Assembly: GCA_964618725.1 (NCBI GenBank)
Contig: CAZUBK010000001.1
Span: 68,878 to 132,877, forward strand
Origin: an uncultured Pseudomonadales bacterium
Lineage (GTDB): Bacteria; Patescibacteriota; Microgenomatia; UBA1400; Chazhemtobacteraceae
Direction: 5' to 3'
DNA length: 64,000 nucleotides
The notes beneath the pieces were generated by a model. It worked only from the letters and a program-made list of their open reading frames with translations. It was not told the DNA's origin and did not search any database. The translations under genes were made by a program, and so were the position numbers. Of the stretch, positions 955 to 17,911 are shown piece after piece (within the stretch, counting starts at the first letter, position 1; every line of letters begins with the position of its first letter).

Positions 955-1383
955 ATGGGAAATTTTAAACAAGGTAGTCGGTTTGGTGGTTCGAGGTTTG
1001 GAGGTAGAAGAGACTTTAGCGACAGAGGGTCGGAGAGAACCATGTATAAAGCAGTGTGTGACAACTGTGGACGAGACTGCGAAGTCCCTTTTCAACCAAC
1101 AAGCGGTAAGCCAGTGTTTTGTAGTGACTGTTTCAAGAAGAGACTTAATGCGGGGGGGGATAGGCCGGAAAGGCGAGACTCTGGACGTGACTTTAATCGG
1201 GATGGACGAAGGTCAGCTCAAAATGAGCAGCTTGAGGTAGTCAACGCAAAGCTAGACAAGATACTCAGAATGTTGGAAGGAAATAAGGTCATTACAGAGA
1301 CTAAAGAAGAGGTTACTAAACCTAAGCTGAAAGCAAAGAAGAAGGTAACTACAAAAAAGAAGTCTGTAAGTAAGAAGAAATAG
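955..1383 (+). CDS. CxxC...CxxC zinc-ribbon protein with Arg/Gly-rich N-terminus and Lys-rich C-terminal tail
   Basis: 142 aa. The segment MYKAVCDNCGRDCEVPFQPTSGKPVFCSDCF contains two CxxC pairs. N-terminal RFGGSRFGGRR repeats and a KKK-rich tail suggest nucleic-acid binding. Confidence 0.55.
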   Translation: MGNFKQGSRFGGSRFGGRRDFSDRGSERTMYKAVCDNCGRDCEVPFQPTSGKPVFCSDCFKKRLNAGGDRPERRDSGRDFNRDGRRSAQNEQLEVVNAKLDKILRMLEGNKVITETKEEVTKPKLKAKKKVTTKKKSVSKKK

Positions 1384-3741: not shown

Positions 3742-3813
3742 GGGTTCGTAGCTCAATGGTAGAGCAATTCCCTCTTAAGGAAGCGGTTGTGGGTTCGACT
3801 CCCACCGGACCCA
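3742..3813 (+). tRNA. tRNA-Lys (anticodon CTT)
   Basis: Acceptor gggttcg/cggaccc, anticodon loop ctcttaa, T-arm gtggg ttcgact cccac. Confidence 0.8.
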
Positions 3814-3878: not shown

Positions 3879-3952
3879 GCACCCGTAGCTCAGCTGGATA
3901 GAGCATCTGACTTCGGATCAGAGGGTCGGGGGTTCAAATCCCTCCGGGTGCA
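3879..3952 (+). tRNA. tRNA-Arg (anticodon TCG)
   Basis: Acceptor gcacccg/cgggtgc, anticodon stem tctga/tcaga with loop cttcgga, T-arm ggttcaaatcc. Confidence 0.8.
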
Positions 3953-4322: not shown

Positions 4323-5510
4323 ATGAGTATGAAGAGGATAGAAGGGGATAATCATTTAGCAAATGTTTTGACCGAGTTAAGAAACCGGGCGGAAGTGTAC
4401 TTTCCTGGTGCTAGATTTGCCTCTGTATATTCCCCTACTGAGAAAGAGATGGTGCTTGTTCCTATTGCAGAGGCTTTGGTTTCACAGTTTGGACATGGAG
4501 TCGATTATGCTTCTGGGGTGTTTGAAGGAAGTAGCGCAATGATAAATGAGAGAACAGGTGTCCCCCATGTAATTTTGCTTGAACAACGAAATAGGAGGTT
4601 ATTTCACCGATCTCTGCCAGCAAGGGGATACGAGGCCCCTGTAAGCGAAGAGGCATTTGCATTGGCAACACTTAATCTTATTGTGGCGAACGGCCTAGAT
4701 CTTTTTAAAAATCCTAATGGAGAAGAAGGTTTTGTGAGGGCTTATATTAGGCCCACTATGTATCCGGCCACTTTGGCTGGATATGGAATCAGTATGCGAA
4801 AGGAATATCCCGTTGATGCTGGCATTATTGCCTGGGCGTGGCCAGATTACTTGGATCATACTTTGGCAACTCGCGGGGGTGTTTGCGCGATCACAGGACA
4901 CCAAAGACTCTTTAAGGTAACTGGTAAACACGCTAGTAACTACGGAGCTGCTGTGAAGGACGGTGGATTGGCGAGGTCACGTGAAGCGGACGAGCTGATT
5001 TATCTAGCACCATATTTAATAGACAAAGATGGACATCTGTATTGGGATGATCCAAACAACTTGGAGGCAAAATTAAGAGATGGTGTAATTTGCGATGGAC
5101 CCGGAGAGGAGTGTGTTGCACTGACGAAAGACCAGAAGACTTTGATTTATCCACCAATGACAACAAATAGATTGGGAGGAACGGTATTGCAATACATTAT
5201 TGATCATATGGCCAAGAATGTGGGACTCGAGACCAGAGAGGGTGAAATTACTTTGCATGATATAAGGACGGGAAAGTATGCAGGGTTGGCGATGGTTGGC
5301 AATGCGGTCAAAGTGACACCGATGAGGCAGATTAACTTGCAGAGTCCACTGGGATGGGAAGAAAAAATTCGTTTCTTTGCTGAAAATAACGTGCCGGAGA
5401 AACTCGATGAGTTGAGAGTTAGATGGGAAAACGAGACGAGAGGACTTGTCGATCCAAGTCATCCTAGTCTGTTGACTTCGGTCGAGGATTTCAATCTTGA
5501 TGTGGTTTGA
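4323..5510 (+). CDS. Fold-type IV PLP-dependent aminotransferase-like protein (BCAT/class IV-like)
   Basis: 395 aa. Runs of similarity to IlvE read by eye: GVFEG...ILLEQRNRRLFHRS (compare FEGIR...HREHMQRLHDSA), AYIRP, and KHASNYGAAVKDGGLARSREADELIYL (compare KAGGNYLSSLLVGSEARRHGYQEGIALD). Confidence 0.55.
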   Translation: MSMKRIEGDNHLANVLTELRNRAEVYFPGARFASVYSPTEKEMVLVPIAEALVSQFGHGVDYASGVFEGSSAMINERTGVPHVILLEQRNRRLFHRSLPARGYEAPVSEEAFALATLNLIVANGLDLFKNPNGEEGFVRAYIRPTMYPATLAGYGISMRKEYPVDAGIIAWAWPDYLDHTLATRGGVCAITGHQRLFKVTGKHASNYGAAVKDGGLARSREADELIYLAPYLIDKDGHLYWDDPNNLEAKLRDGVICDGPGEECVALTKDQKTLIYPPMTTNRLGGTVLQYIIDHMAKNVGLETREGEITLHDIRTGKYAGLAMVGNAVKVTPMRQINLQSPLGWEEKIRFFAENNVPEKLDELRVRWENETRGLVDPSHPSLLTSVEDFNLDVV

Positions 5511-5595: not shown

Positions 5596-5623
5596 ACCGG
5601 GCGAAAGCCCTTTTTTTTCGGCT
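5596..5623 (+). terminator. Rho-independent terminator
   Basis: cgggcgaaagccc followed by T8. Confidence 0.7.
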
Positions 5624-5656: not shown

Positions 5657-7147
5657 ATGAAGAAAATGAAACTGAACATAGAAGGGAAAGTGGTGAGCCT
5701 GGGTTACTCGGAGCACTTTGCAAATCTGACACGAATGAACCAGAGCCTTAACTTTGGGGCGAGGGATAATTACATCAGTAGGGGGCTTCTTTATGTTGAT
5801 GTGCCGGAGATAGTCGGAATAACTGGGGCATGTGAGAATGTTGATACTTTGTTTAAAGTGGGTAACCGGATGGGGTTACCGCTTTTTTTTAGCCAAACGG
5901 GGCAGTTGGCGCTAGAGCAGACACTCCAGTCATTCCCGGGAGTCTTTACTGTGATTCATTCAGGAAGAGATGAGGAGATAGAGGATGAGCGACATTTAAG
6001 ACAATTTCGCTTAACCGAGGAAGAGTTTGATTGTACGATGGCTGGGATGGCAAGAGAGACGTATGACGAGGAGGTCATGTTTGAGGCGCTTTTGTCACAC
6101 ATTCAGGCTGCGGTACAGGCGATGATAGCAAGAGTGGTGGAGGACCGGGGAGAAGAACTGGAGCAAGTGTATGGTCGAGAGGTGAAAGCACTGAAATATG
6201 CCACCAAGAATGATTTCTTACGGATCAATTACGAAGATGCTGTTAACTTATTGCGAGAGAATGGATTTAAAAAGTTATGTTTTGGAGACGACTTGGGATC
6301 AGCTGAGGAAGCCAGAGTAGTGGAGATACTAAACAAAGGGAAGCAATTACCAGTATTTATTATGCGGTATCCCAAGGAAATAAAGTTCTTCAACATGAAG
6401 GTATCAGAAAAGGACCCTCGGGTAGTGCTGTCAGCAGACTTGGTCTTTCCTTTTGCTGGAGAGGGGGTCGGGAGTGCTGTCAGAGAGCACGATTATGAAC
6501 GATTAAATAAAAGATTGCTTGAGTCAACGATGTATCGGCTTCATATAGAAAGAGGAGGCAAGTATGGGGACTTTGGCTGGTACTTAAATATTGTCAAGGA
6601 CAAGGGAAGTAATCCTCATGCCGGATATGGTATAGGCAATGAAAGAGTAATGCAGTATATCCTCGGCGAAACTGATATTAGACGGGCGTCGATGTTTTCG
6701 TTACTAAATAGACAAACGGGAGATTGGGATGAGAGACATTACGGCCAAGCGGCGGTTTTGCAACAGCCTCAGCTTAAGATACTTCTTTCCATAGGTAAGA
6801 AAAGGAACAAAAGGATATTACTGCCGGAGATAAAGAGACTAATAGGAAGTGAGAGAGCAATTATTTATGCAACACAGAAGACGCATGAGTATCTTGAGAT
6901 GGAAGGAGTCAGAAGCCTACTAGTACATAAAATCTCGCAGTTGGACCATACACCTAATATTGCAGATCTGCTGAGCCGAAGAGTGTTTGACTTAATCGTT
7001 AATATTCCAACTCGAACTAAAGTACGGACAAGTGTAGAGTTTACCGACGGTAAATTAATCAGAAAGGGAGCGGTAGACTTGGGAATAAAGCTAATTACTG
7101 ATCCTGAGGTGGCGATCATGACATTGCGGAATTTGGCAAGAGAATAA
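5657..7147 (+). CDS. Class IIb aaRS-like catalytic core (AsnRS/AspRS-type, AsnA-like) fused to a C-terminal MGS-like domain
   Basis: 496 aa. Motif 2-like HSGRDEEIEDERHLRQFRLTEEEF, FIMRYPKEIKFFNMK, DLVFPFAGEGVGSAVREHDYERL, and motif 3 AGYGIGNERVMQYILGETDIRRASMF. No anticodon-binding OB domain. C-terminal ILLSIGKKRNKRILLPEIKRL...ATQKTHEYLEMEGV...DLIVNIPT resembles the MGS-like fold of CarB/PurH. Confidence 0.6.
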   Translation: MKKMKLNIEGKVVSLGYSEHFANLTRMNQSLNFGARDNYISRGLLYVDVPEIVGITGACENVDTLFKVGNRMGLPLFFSQTGQLALEQTLQSFPGVFTVIHSGRDEEIEDERHLRQFRLTEEEFDCTMAGMARETYDEEVMFEALLSHIQAAVQAMIARVVEDRGEELEQVYGREVKALKYATKNDFLRINYEDAVNLLRENGFKKLCFGDDLGSAEEARVVEILNKGKQLPVFIMRYPKEIKFFNMKVSEKDPRVVLSADLVFPFAGEGVGSAVREHDYERLNKRLLESTMYRLHIERGGKYGDFGWYLNIVKDKGSNPHAGYGIGNERVMQYILGETDIRRASMFSLLNRQTGDWDERHYGQAAVLQQPQLKILLSIGKKRNKRILLPEIKRLIGSERAIIYATQKTHEYLEMEGVRSLLVHKISQLDHTPNIADLLSRRVFDLIVNIPTRTKVRTSVEFTDGKLIRKGAVDLGIKLITDPEVAIMTLRNLARE

Positions 7148-7198: not shown

Positions 7199-9103
7199 AT
7201 GGCAAAAATTGAAGTCTTAAAGACAAGAGAAAGCGAATATGCACAGTTAAAGTCAATAGAGAGGGAGATCAGAATTACTGGCGGATTCTGGCGATCTATA
7301 TTAGATACAAATCTTGAAGTAAGCTTACTCAGACAATATGAGGAGTGCGAGAAAACAGGAAGAATAGATAACTTTCGTCGAGCGGCGGGAATCCCGGTAG
7401 CGAGAGAGGAAAAAAGACAGATTGCTCCCGACTCGGATGTATACAAATGGGTAGAGGCGGCGAGTTATGCTTTGAGAGATAAAGAATTACCAGGACTGAC
7501 TGATAAGTTGAATGAAGTAATAGATTTGATTGTGGCAGCCCAATCGGAAGACGGGTATCTTAACACGATGTTTGTGGGGGAAAGAGTAAAAAGTCGCTTC
7601 AGTAATCTGCTTTGGGATCATGAGCTATATTGTGGAGGTCATCTGATTCAGGCGGCACTGGCGCATTGGCGAGCGACGGGTGAGACAGAATTACTAAATG
7701 TTGGACTGGCATTCGCCAATCATATCTGTGAGTACTTTGGTGAGGAAACACATCAAGGTACCTGTGGCCATCCCGAGATTGAGATGGCGTTGGTGGAACT
7801 ATATCGGGAAACGGGAGAGACAAAATATCTTAATCAAGCAGTTTTCTTTATCAACCAACGAGGGCGAATGCCACCCATCTTGAACGGGAGTAGTGGCATT
7901 CAGGACCATTTACCGATAAATGAACAGACAGAAGTAGCCGGTCATGCGGTAAGGCAATTGTATTTGATGGCGGGATTGGCCGATCTTTATATGGAGACAG
8001 GAGATGGGGCAATACTTTCAGCAATAGAGCAACAATGGCTGGACCTAACAAAGAGACGAATGGCAATTACAGGAGGGACTGGGTCAAGATATGCGGGAGA
8101 GTCATTTGGTTTACCATATGAGTTGCCAGACAGGACAGCTTACAATGAGACGTGTGCAGCAATTGCCAGCTTCATGTTTGCCTGGCGATTGTTACATATT
8201 AGGCCAAATGCGAGGATTGCCGATTTGATGGAGCAGACGCTATACAACGGCGTTCTGGCGGGTGTATCGCTAGACGGACAAAGTTACTTTTATGCGAATC
8301 CTCTAGAGCATCCAGGAGACGATAGTAGTATTCGAACATTTTATGGCAGTAATCAGAGGACGAGAGAGATGTGGGATCAGGTTCCTTGTTGCCCGCCTAA
8401 CTTGGCGAGAATTCTAGCCTCGTTACCTGACTATTTGTATACCAATACGCAAGGGACGATATATTGCCACTTGTTTGCTCAAAGTGAGGCCACATTTGAA
8501 ACAAAGAAGGGAAGGATTGGCCTTTCGCAGAGAACCAATTACCCTTGGGACGGGGAAGTGGAGTTGAGAGTTGAGACTGTGGACCCTGTTGAGCATGAAA
8601 TCGCACTTAGGATGCCTGGGTTTGCAGGCAAGGCGGTGATGGAGATAAATGGGGAAGAGCAAGAAGTTGTTATTGGAGAAGATGGATATGTAAGATTAGT
8701 TCGAGTCTGGCAGTCGGGTGACATTATTACTCTACAGATGGAGTTGTTAGTCAGAAAGATGGCTTCACACTCGCATTTGACGAGTCATGCCGGAAGTATC
8801 GCCTTAATGCGAGGACCGTTAGTTTACTGCCTTGAAGGAGTAGATCATTCCGACTGTGATATCTTTGATTTGGTGCTAGAGAAGACACAGGTTTTTGAGG
8901 AGGAATTTCGACCAGAGTTATTGAAAGGCATAATGACTCTTACGAGCACTGCCCTACTGAGATCCAAGTCTCCCGGACTGTATTTCCCGATTGATGGGCA
9001 AGAGGGAGAGAGTAAAGAGGTGGCGATAACGGCAATCCCCTATTTTGCCTGGGCGAATCGTGGCAGAAGTTCGATGAAGGTGTGGTTACCGTTGAAAACT
9101 TGA
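7199..9103 (+). CDS. Glycoside hydrolase family 127-like (DUF1680, beta-L-arabinofuranosidase-like)
   Basis: 634 aa. FWR, NFRRAAG, QLYLMAGLADLY and the Cys-rich VPCCPPNLARIL segment resemble the GH127 Zn/Cys active-site region. Confidence 0.5.
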   Translation: MAKIEVLKTRESEYAQLKSIEREIRITGGFWRSILDTNLEVSLLRQYEECEKTGRIDNFRRAAGIPVAREEKRQIAPDSDVYKWVEAASYALRDKELPGLTDKLNEVIDLIVAAQSEDGYLNTMFVGERVKSRFSNLLWDHELYCGGHLIQAALAHWRATGETELLNVGLAFANHICEYFGEETHQGTCGHPEIEMALVELYRETGETKYLNQAVFFINQRGRMPPILNGSSGIQDHLPINEQTEVAGHAVRQLYLMAGLADLYMETGDGAILSAIEQQWLDLTKRRMAITGGTGSRYAGESFGLPYELPDRTAYNETCAAIASFMFAWRLLHIRPNARIADLMEQTLYNGVLAGVSLDGQSYFYANPLEHPGDDSSIRTFYGSNQRTREMWDQVPCCPPNLARILASLPDYLYTNTQGTIYCHLFAQSEATFETKKGRIGLSQRTNYPWDGEVELRVETVDPVEHEIALRMPGFAGKAVMEINGEEQEVVIGEDGYVRLVRVWQSGDIITLQMELLVRKMASHSHLTSHAGSIALMRGPLVYCLEGVDHSDCDIFDLVLEKTQVFEEEFRPELLKGIMTLTSTALLRSKSPGLYFPIDGQEGESKEVAITAIPYFAWANRGRSSMKVWLPLKT

Positions 9104-16681: not shown

Positions 16682-17788
16682 TTAGGCTAGTTGTTCCCAC
16701 GGTAGATGGGCAGGTCCGAAATGGCCATAACTTGCGGTTTGACGATAGATGGGTCGGCGAAGGTCAAACTTGGTGATGATACCTCCCACTGATAAGTCGA
16801 GTAAATTCCAAGCAAAATCGTTAATGACTTTGTCTGACTGGTTCGAGGTACCAAAAGTTTCAATTGCCTTACCTACTGGTTGACGATGGCCGATGGCATA
16901 GGCCAATTGAACTTCACAACGGTCGGCAAGTTTCTGGGCCACTATATTCTTGGCGATATAACGCGCGGCATAAGCAGCAGAGCGATCAACCTTAGTCGGA
17001 TCTTTACCGGAAAAGCAACCGCCGCCGATTCGACCCATTCCACCATAGGTATCGACAACAATTTTGCGGCCAGTAACCCCGGTGTCAGAATACGGGCCAC
17101 CGATTTCCCAGGCGCCTGTACCATTGAAAATGACTTGGGATGGCTTAATGGCAGGTAAATGATATTCCTCTAGTAAAGGGGAGACAATGAGTCTGAAAAG
17201 TTGGTCTTTAACTTCCTCTTTCTTAACTTTAGGATCATGAGGTTTGGCAAGGACGACGGTAACGACTTGCTCTGGCTCACCTTTTTGACTGTACGAGACG
17301 GTTACCTGAGACTTGCCGTCAGGACGAAGATAGGTTAGCTCATTTTGGGCTAGTTCATCGAGGCGGCGGACAAGCGCGTGCGAAAGAGAAATAGGGAGAG
17401 GCATGAGCGACTTTGTTTCATTGGTGGCATAACCAAACATCATTCCCTGATCTCCCGCCCCGCCATCATCTACACCAAGGGCGATATCAGGAGACTGTTG
17501 GTGGATATAGACGTTGAAATTTGTTTCAGGACCAAAATTAAAGATTTTCTGAGTATAGCCGAGGTCATTAATGACAGCCTTAGCGATATTGACATATTGG
17601 AGTGGCTTGGGGCAGGTGATCTCACCGGCTAGCACCAATTTATTTGTAGTAACCAGGGTCTCACAGGCGACACGTGATTGAGAATCAACGGTGAGAGCGG
17701 CATCAAGAATGGCGTCGCTTACTTGATCACAGATTTTGTCCGGGTGACCGGCACAGACTGACTCCGATGAAAAGAGGGAGTATTGCAT
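16682..17788 (-). CDS. metK: S-adenosylmethionine synthetase
   Basis: [40 protein letters not shown], and a 368-aa length typical of MetK. Confidence 0.9.
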   Translation of the reverse strand: [368 protein letters not shown]

Positions 17789-17911
17789 TTTAGTTTTCCT
17801 CTAATTAATAAGGCTTGTCATTTTGGCACCGCGTCCTGCATAAGGCTCGGTTGCCGGTCCCGTTGAGGGACTCTCTTGACAGTGAAACCATAGTAACATA
17901 ATGGGGAGTGA
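17789..17911 (-). promoter_or_regulatory. Structured metK leader (candidate SAM-responsive riboswitch-like element)
   Basis: Minus-strand leader CUGUCAAGAGAGUCCCUCAACGGGACCGGCAACCGAGCCUUAUGCAGGACGCGGUGCCAAAAUGACA. P1 is UGUCA/UGACA and encloses two hairpins. CAAGAGAG, GGCAACC and GGUGCCAA resemble S-box blocks. The RBS GAGGAAAA follows. Confidence 0.3.

Follow-up and report, generated by a model that had tools for sequence, protein, structure and literature searches.

The open reading frame (ORF) at positions 5657..7147 (+) of the 64,000-nucleotide stretch of DNA analysed here (contig CAZUBK010000001.1 of an uncultured bacterium with the GTDB lineage Patescibacteriota; Microgenomatia, the whole stretch being referred to as the window) was confirmed to specify an anticodon-less catalytic core of the asparaginyl-tRNA synthetase (AsnRS) type fused to a CarB-type, methylglyoxal synthase (MGS)-like domain. 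On sequence comparison this core belongs to a distinct, unnamed and highly conserved clade, designated here as family X, members of which occur either with the MGS domain (X+MGS) or as the core alone, and a strong linkage of X to pyrD, pyrE and pyrF, by operon and by fusion, was observed across at least three phyla. The reading which we favour, with a probability of roughly 0.4, is that X may represent a nucleotide-regulated, AMP-forming amide ligase which would feed dihydroorotate to PyrD, an assignment in which we infer activity, substrate, product and effector alike.

The ORF encodes 496 amino acids, with its stop codon at 7145-7147, while an identical public protein of 493 amino acids, on a 325-kb contig, is annotated from the second methionine, at nt 5666 and three residues downstream. 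The class IIb catalytic core of the AsnRS type comprises residues 1-362 (5657..6742, +), as identified by Pfam, NCBIfam, PDB sequence search and Foldseek, and is followed by a disordered interdomain linker of residues 363-368 (6743..6760, +), where the per-residue confidence of the structural model (pLDDT) falls below 50, and by the CarB-type allosteric, MGS-like domain of residues 369-496 (6761..7144, +), as identified by the Pfam MGS model, the C-terminus of the NCBIfam CarB models and a domain profile. The Pfam model tRNA-synt_2 (class II D/K/N) matched residues 7-348 (E 3.6e-32, 112 bits, cut-off 25), and MGS (PF02142) matched residues 402-481 (E 8.5e-8, 32.7 bits, gathering score 24.1). 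Among the NCBIfam models the AsnRS models were the best match (162 bits), but they covered only profile positions ~130-448, that is, the part which follows the OB-fold anticodon domain, whereas the CarB models aligned residues 370-492 to the last ~115 CarB positions. In agreement with this, neither Pfam nor an AlphaFold2 (AF2) model revealed an OB-fold anticodon domain (PF01336) in the protein; the AF2 model, built from 98 homologues with a mean pLDDT of 89.8, consists of two domains joined by the disordered linker, the second having an alpha/beta fold. The nearest PDB relative by sequence is the AsnRS of Pyrococcus horikoshii (1X54, E 3e-32, query residues 25-348 against chain residues 135-426), archaeal asparagine synthetase A (3P8T) reaching only E 0.028, and a Foldseek search against the PDB returned AsnRS structures for all of the top 27 matches (E 1e-26, TM about 0.63-0.64 on the target), archaeal aspartyl-tRNA synthetase (AspRS) coming next. 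An earlier note, written from the letters of the window, had described this ORF as an AsnRS/AspRS-type core without an anticodon domain joined to a C-terminal MGS-like domain, and these parts of its description stand: the motif 2 string ERHLRQFRLTEEEF is present at residues 111-124 (the second strand of motif 2) and the motif 3 string AGYGIGNERVMQYILGETDIRRASMF at residues 322-347, no cryptic anticodon-binding domain was detected by Pfam, NCBIfam or in the AF2 model, and the C-terminal domain is a genuine homologue of the MGS/CarB-allosteric domains.

Hundreds of homologues with the core+MGS architecture were found at 60-67% identity, their hosts, where named, being Patescibacteria of the Microgenomates group (Levy-, Roizman-, Beckwith-, Gottesman-, Woese- and Amesbacteria), and they are labelled "amino acid--tRNA ligase-related protein" or, at JGI, "asparaginyl-tRNA synthetase" in the databases. 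Core-only relatives of 310-370 amino acids fall into two groups, the first from other groups of the candidate phyla radiation (CPR; 57-68% identity) and the second, at ~40-45% identity, from DPANN and other archaea, Oligoflexales, Sericytochromatia, Chloroflexi and Thermoleophilia/Gaiellales. When 1.84 billion cluster representatives were searched exhaustively with a profile, 745 proteins were obtained at E below 1e-30, and more than 100 anticodon-less representatives outscored the first full-length AsnRS; the sampled family members share 58 to 60 invariant columns, the number varying with the alignment. All tested members score highest on the AsnRS catalytic domain, and none of them, bacterial or archaeal, passes the curated cut-off for AsnRS, AspRS or archaeal asparagine synthetase A. 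For the protein of the window, the AsnRS equivalogs TIGR00457 and NF003037 gave 162.4 bits against cut-offs of 342.6 and 414, and the models of archaeal asparagine synthetase A (AS-AR), NF005052-NF005055, gave 73.4 against 368, 46.7 against 309, 39.2 against 389 and 30.2 against 322 bits. Its relatives reached 61-166 bits on NF005052, the best-scoring of these models (cut-off 368), and the bacterial AsnA model (PF03590) and the EpmA/PoxA models (TIGR00462 and NF006828) did not match the protein at E up to 0.1. The assignment to AS-AR put forward in the earlier note was consequently not upheld, as 73 bits fall far short of 368 and both sequence and fold are nearest to true AsnRS. Its remark that no such fusion had been described agrees with our full-text literature search, which retrieved nothing on the X family, the core+MGS fusion or an ATP-dependent route to dihydroorotate.

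These scores bear on the main rival of the favoured reading, a tentative and somewhat unlikely alternative, namely that X is a third, independently derived asparagine synthetase A, converting Asp, NH4+ and ATP to Asn, AMP and PPi via beta-aspartyl-AMP, to which a nucleotide-sensing domain has been added. This explanation has the best precedent, since the characterised anticodon-less cores of the AspRS/AsnRS type, AsnA and AS-AR, are both asparagine synthetases. AS-AR (Pyrococcus abyssi 3P8T) and AsnA have in common with X a class IIb synthetase-like core devoid of an anticodon domain, and amide formation via an acyl-adenylate would be the obvious shared chemistry, putative on the side of X; unlike X, AS-AR is a protein of about 294 amino acids with no extra domains and no reported link to pyrimidine genes. 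Against the asparagine synthetase explanation stand the scores far below the curated cut-offs, the closer relationship to AsnRS and the absence of asparagine synthetase A and AsnA structures from the 50 best fold matches.

The comparison of the catalytic core with AsnRS was based on a one-profile alignment of 215 anticodon-less proteins with 22 OB-containing AsnRS obtained in the same search. Both groups have in common E60, Q80, Q83, E87, R104, E106, R112, H113, E121, E123, D261, E269, R276, H321 and R330, which by alignment are the whole of the adenylate-forming site. Motif 2 (residues 102-124, 5960..6028, +) carries the invariant R104, E106, R112, H113, E121 and E123, and motif 3 (residues 321-336, 6617..6664, +) carries H321, G323, G325, G327 and R330. 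Other positions differ systematically: in the segment G57-A-C-E-N-V-D63 (5825..5845, +) E60 is as in AsnRS, while N61 and D63 are family-specific, positions 61-63 being N-V-D in the X family as compared to G-G-S in AsnRS. The motif-2 loop (residues 105-111, D-E-E-I-E-D-E, 5969..5989, +) is acidic, and its positions 107-111 read P/E-E/D-A/V-D-D in the X family where full-length AsnRS has K-S-R-T-R, position 110 being D in 194 of the 215 core-only proteins and T in 17 of the 22 OB-containing AsnRS. Lastly, the family signature YPKEIKFFNM (residues 238-247, 6368..6397, +) includes N246 where AsnRS has Tyr, with N found in 203/215 core-only proteins and Y in 20/22 full-length AsnRS. X therefore resembles AsnRS (P. 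horikoshii 1X54, Thermus thermophilus 5ZG8/9SH8) in the fold of the catalytic domain and in all adenylation residues at ~30% identity over ~330 residues, and departs from it in lacking the OB domain, in the MGS domain, the acidic motif-2 loop, N-V-D for G-G-S and N246 for Y, and in its location in pyr operons.

In the complex of yeast AspRS with its tRNA, Ser and Thr of the motif-2 loop presumably touch the acceptor end of the tRNA, and the acidic loop of X, together with the missing OB domain, constitutes a strong argument against tRNA charging. That X is a true asparaginyl-tRNA synthetase in which the MGS domain or a separate protein substitutes for the anticodon-binding domain is thus very improbable, even if several source pipelines use that name and the family is as highly conserved as a translation factor: beyond the absent OB domain and the acidic loop in place of K-S-R-T-R, the score of 162 bits compares to cut-offs of 343-414, core-only forms exist which do not even carry the MGS domain, and a synthetase would not normally be expected in pyr operons. 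The statement of the earlier note that this is not a true tRNA synthetase was thereby borne out, such a role being very unlikely. The pipeline name "asparaginyl-tRNA synthetase" is almost certainly wrong for X, and may mislead attempts to reconstruct the translation machinery of the host genomes.

The preservation of the adenylation site, as judged from the alignment, speaks for X being a real enzyme that depends on ATP and acts on a substrate resembling asparagine, and not a dead regulatory paralogue of the HisZ type. HisZ and EpmA/PoxA, like X, are synthetase cores that have been recruited for tasks outside translation, within or close to a biosynthetic pathway; HisZ, however, derives from HisRS and is catalytically dead, whereas the catalytic residues of X are intact, and EpmA derives from LysRS and modifies elongation factor P (EF-P), whereas the partner pathway of X is pyrimidine synthesis. 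EpmA/PoxA, whose class IIb core likewise has no anticodon domain and which modifies a lysine of EF-P, is the precedent for a further explanation, in which X would transfer an aminoacyl group (Asn or Asp) to a non-tRNA acceptor, such as a protein lysine, a small amine or a nucleotide, with the MGS domain binding the acceptor or an effector. The fully conserved site for alpha-carboxyl activation of the AsnRS type would be in keeping with such a transferase, and a cationic acceptor would go well with the acidic motif-2 loop, but no candidate acceptor gene recurs beside X, the protein of the window has no significant EpmA/GenX match and the fusions to pyrD and pyrE would be left unexplained; we therefore regard this role as improbable.

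The identity of the second domain was examined with a profile built from the MGS domains of X proteins, of ArgG fusions and of one CPR CarB, which matched the C-terminal domain of CPS1 (8e-16), Escherichia coli CarB 943-1042 (3e-6) and, weakly, PurH (2e-3). The domain is homologous to CarB 937-1073 of E. coli and to the C-terminal domain of human CPS1, with the difference that in CarB it is joined to an ATP-grasp carbamate-kinase domain and in X to an adenylation core resembling an aminoacyl-tRNA synthetase (aaRS). A putative effector (nucleotide phosphate) site is formed by the family-invariant columns S378, K385, A405-T406, T409, K425, N449, D464 and R469 (6788..7063, +), the CarB counterparts of which, in an alignment to 1a9x, are in the same order S948, K954, A973-T974, T977, K993, N1015, D1025 and R1030. 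We take CarB K954, T974 and N1015 to be engaged in binding of the phosphate and ribose of inosine monophosphate (IMP). T977, K993 and S948 of CarB are critical for regulation by uridine monophosphate (UMP) and IMP (PMC6245113). The retention of residues aligned with the UMP/IMP site makes it most likely that the MGS domain of X binds a phosphorylated effector, for example a nucleoside monophosphate. The earlier note had proposed a ligase under allosteric control; the control is plausible because these residues are invariant in the family.

The genomic context of X was determined by calling ORFs in 80 loci from species-representative genomes, with labels taken from family seeds and checked against Pfam and NCBIfam (loci and proteins sampled in this study are given L and P numbers, respectively). 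Among the 36 X+MGS loci in which the next gene is known, pyrD is adjacent to or fused with X in 22, and pyrD or pyrF is present in the locus in 24, while in the same scan pyrD adjoins X in just 2/41 core-only loci, so that presence of the MGS domain correlates with the pyr context. The typical operon is ordered X, pyrD, a phosphoribosyltransferase (PRTase) resembling orotate phosphoribosyltransferase (OPRT-like, pyrE-like) and pyrF, often with prs and pyrG and a SLOG/LDcluster4 protein, and overlaps of stop and start codons of 4 to 23 nt are common. Fusions of X+MGS with PyrD were found in P0108, P0120, P0266 and L030, and X+MGS, PyrD and a PRTase-like domain form a single chain in P0249, present on four contigs and with pyrE-like and pyrF genes downstream of it. 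In the pyrD-pyrE-pyrF operons which X heads in many Microgenomates, carAB, pyrB and pyrC are usually unseen near X. Beyond this group, core-only X of Oligoflexales sits between pyrE and pyrF (pyrE< X> pyrF>), and on four contigs of the Sericytochromatia type core-only X adjoins a pyrK-pyrD-pyrF-pyrE operon which also holds purine genes, being divergent from the operon in three of the four and co-directional, with overlapping stop and start codons, in the remaining one. The conserved pyrD-pyrE-pyrF context and the fusions point to a role in pyrimidine biosynthesis rather than in generic amino-acid amidation. CAD and UMP synthase, like the X fusions, combine consecutive pyrimidine enzymes in one chain (PyrD and PRTase in the case of X), but the N-terminal enzyme of the X fusions is an aaRS paralogue from outside the textbook pathway.

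These arrangements also bear on the explanation that X is a regulatory or scaffolding subunit, as HisZ is with HisG, which would sense an Asn-like ligand and a nucleotide and modulate PyrD or downstream enzymes. X being, by lineage, first in the operon, divergent from it or fused to PyrD would be in line with such a function, as would the possession of an allosteric domain; since the residues of AsnRS for binding of ATP and substrate are invariant across phyla, unlike the loss seen in HisZ, we consider a mainly regulatory X a long shot. A stand-alone MGS protein beside X of the Sericytochromatia type was considered as an unfused counterpart of X+MGS and was rejected, as it is in fact the IMP-cyclohydrolase part of a split PurH (hhalign probability 0.4% against the MGS domain of X). 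In these mixed pyrimidine/purine operons purH is split into an IMP-cyclohydrolase gene (227-237 amino acids) and an AICAR-formyltransferase gene (364-375 amino acids), the split genes being located at L086:5955-6641 (-), L090:5802-6485 (-), L091:7984-8697 and L091:11887-13014. A divergent class 1 dihydroorotate dehydrogenase (DHODH) with an N-terminal extension and a C-terminal PRTase-like domain (a weak PRTase-CE match), followed by a separate OPRT-like gene, was additionally noted at L008:11472-13391 and L015:11495-13348, and corresponds to residues ~645-1113 of P0249.

Two further partners of X recur in Microgenomates. The first is a genuine argininosuccinate synthase (ArgG, the ATP-dependent ligase of the arginine branch; 502 bits against a cut-off of 334) to which the MGS domain seen in X is fused C-terminally and which is usually located within a few genes of X (L008:7326-9014, L012:8165-9784 (-), L024:7513-9126, L037:5384-7024, L048:8750-10357 and L083:2711-4318); no description of an ArgG-MGS fusion was found in the literature search. 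The occurrence of the domain on both X and ArgG fits a CarB-type arginine/pyrimidine regulatory module that has been relocated onto branch enzymes. The second partner is a highly conserved CPR amidohydrolase of 325 amino acids, belonging to NF005365 ("hypothetical protein"), which has HVDQ where deaminases have HxxE; among solved structures, cytosine deaminase and AtzC are closest to it. Its 120 best matches show 65-94% identity, and none of these homologues is fused to X. It often shares contigs with X, was located at L008:9004-9999, L037:8864-9844 (-) and in eight other loci, and lies directly upstream of X in several. The same clusters as X also contain aspartate-handling genes, namely aspA, argG, argH and malic enzyme.

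According to the reading that X supplies dihydroorotate, the N-terminal domain would have arisen from an AsnRS core which kept the site for ATP and an asparagine-like substrate and lost the parts required for tRNA charging. An Asx-type substrate would have a carboxylate converted by X to an acyl-adenylate, and the dihydropyrimidine ring would next be closed or built by means of a nitrogen nucleophile, yielding dihydroorotate for PyrD. The MGS domain would provide feedback by pyrimidine or purine mononucleotides, making X the regulated, ATP-consuming entry step, and in lineages controlled at a point other than CarB, the first ATP-driven ligase in each branch, namely X and ArgG, may have received the regulatory module. 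The position of X at the head of the PyrD-PRTase chain, and between pyrC and pyrD in a Gottesmanbacteria locus (L068), is most simply explained by X acting at the level of dihydroorotate.

Three candidate reactions may be envisaged, given here in order of preference. In the first, X would adenylate the beta-carboxyl group of N-carbamoyl-L-aspartate, followed by intramolecular ring closure, a chemistry akin to that of AsnA, where a class IIb core activates a beta-carboxylate that is then attacked by nitrogen; beta-lactam synthetase, which arose from AsnB, is an example of an asparagine synthetase turned into an intramolecular amide former. In the second, Asn, CO2 and ATP would be converted via Asn-AMP and an N-carboxyanhydride to dihydroorotate, a route which would leave the conserved AsnRS chemistry as it is and would make sense of carAB, pyrB and pyrC being usually unseen. 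In the third, argininosuccinate delivered by ArgG-MGS would be cyclised to its anhydride and ornithine would be hydrolysed off by the enzyme resembling AtzC and cytosine deaminase; argininosuccinate has a known six-membered anhydride, and this candidate would explain both neighbours, ArgG-MGS and the hydrolase. The bolder claim that the X family makes dihydroorotate without carbamoyl phosphate, aspartate transcarbamoylase (ATCase) or dihydroorotase (DHOase), for instance from Asn, CO2 and ATP or from argininosuccinate, is doubtful and would at most be ventured as a speculation.

Several observations weigh against a supply of dihydroorotate by X. Core-only X of Parcubacteria, Saccharibacteria, DPANN archaea and Actinobacteriota has neither a pyr context nor a recurrent neighbour, which fits better with a self-contained function such as asparagine synthesis, and no pyrimidine gene is present anywhere in the 64-kb window. 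The L068 operon comprises carA, carB, pyrB, a DHOase-like gene with intact metal ligands, X and pyrD-pyrF-pyrE-pyrG, and in L011 a DHOase-like gene lies directly upstream of X+MGS; these DHOase-like genes beside X imply that it is not simply a DHOase replacement. E60 and Q83, which in AsnRS-like fashion would bind a free alpha-amino group, are retained, something the first candidate reaction does not predict, and D63 and D110, the newly acquired acidic residues, might just as well make up a site for ammonium. The last point, like the wide occurrence of X among reduced genomes, whether or not they contain pyr genes, accords with the asparagine synthetase explanation, for which the acidic or polar D110, D63 and N61 would be suitable and the aspartate-handling genes in X clusters a natural company; the linkage to pyr genes would then reflect shared use and co-regulation of the aspartate pool. 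That explanation, however, accounts neither for the PyrD/PRTase fusions and the translational coupling, nor for the CarB domain of the UMP/IMP type, nor for the linkage to pyrD-E-F instead of the aspartate-consuming pyrB.

Among the possibilities that were considered and set aside, X as a plain replacement of DHOase was weakened by the two DHOase-like genes directly upstream of it in L068 and L011, and a search for recurrent neighbours of core-only X in Parcubacteria and DPANN archaea gave none, the commonest being GreA in 4 loci and serine hydroxymethyltransferase (SHMT) in 3. X of L068 (8585-11110) has an N-terminal extension of ~480 amino acids without a Pfam match and lacks the MGS domain; a likewise ~480-amino acid N-terminal extension without a Pfam match, and no MGS domain, was also seen in P0256 and P0274. 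In the Actinobacteriota loci L087, L089 and L092 a conserved set of a Na/Ca exchanger, a HIT protein and a phosphoenolpyruvate (PEP) carboxylase is present a few kb downstream of core-only X, and the spacers of 400-570 nt upstream of X in L087 and L089 gave no Rfam match.

Recruitment of anticodon-less synthetase paralogues to metabolism is already known from AsnA, AS-AR, HisZ and EpmA, and what is new in X is the domain partner, MGS, and the association with the pyrimidine pathway. If X does supply dihydroorotate, this would add a new enzymatic step to one of life's most conserved pathways and a further instance of a tRNA synthetase core recruited into metabolism, and would revise the view of the metabolic autonomy of CPR bacteria. 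The CPR (Patescibacteria) are generally described as unable to make nucleotides (e.g. PMC7143001). Should the carbamoyl-phosphate-free route be true, it would amount to a four-gene UMP pathway in CPR, consisting of X, PyrD, PyrE and PyrF with feedback via a relocated CarB domain. Should X instead be an asparagine synthetase, it would represent a third independent class IIb origin of that activity, equipped with a borrowed nucleotide-sensing domain.

In the window X is preceded by a gene for a class IV aminotransferase resembling branched-chain aminotransferases (BCAT-like; 4323-5510, +), 395 amino acids in length and unusually long and divergent. BCAT models match two separated stretches of this protein only, far below their cut-offs. 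Between this gene and X a terminator-like GGGC-GAAA-GCCC hairpin followed by T8 (5599..5618, +) was read from the sequence, its stem falling below the 5-bp threshold of the hairpin scan, and hairpin and T8 suggest that X in the window is transcribed on its own. The downstream neighbour (7199-9103, +) encodes a GH127-family glycosidase, which scored 469 bits on the aceric acid hydrolase model (cut-off 950) and is preceded by a promoter-like site; the presence of such a glycosidase in a genome of the CPR type may be of relevance to the use of plant pectin side chains. Neither neighbour recurs at related loci, the aminotransferase being found in 0 of about 90. The earlier note had seen in the aminotransferase and X a small amino-acid-conversion module, which is unsupported given that the aminotransferase is not conserved and that the hairpin intervenes. 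A conserved aminotransferase module was rejected likewise, as the BCAT-like protein remained unmatched in the about 90 loci and the gene of similar size upstream of X in L093 is unrelated (E 4.5). Rfam showed no leader RNA (T-box or riboswitch) upstream of X, either in the window or in the seven loci examined whose upstream spacers are long.

Elsewhere in the window, a SAM-I/IV riboswitch match at 17781-17887 (-) lies just above the gathering score (43.2 as compared to 41.1 bits). GC skew is positive in all 2-kb bins but one, and the cumulative skew rises almost monotonically over the 64 kb; a similar strand asymmetry has been reported for some Microgenomates genomes (PMC7143001). The ORF at 955-1383 (+) specifies a small zinc-ribbon protein (CxxC...CxxC) whose N-terminus is rich in Gly and Arg and whose tail is rich in Lys. 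Upstream of X, tRNA genes form a loose cluster at 2-75, 2891-2964, 3742-3813 and 3879-3952.

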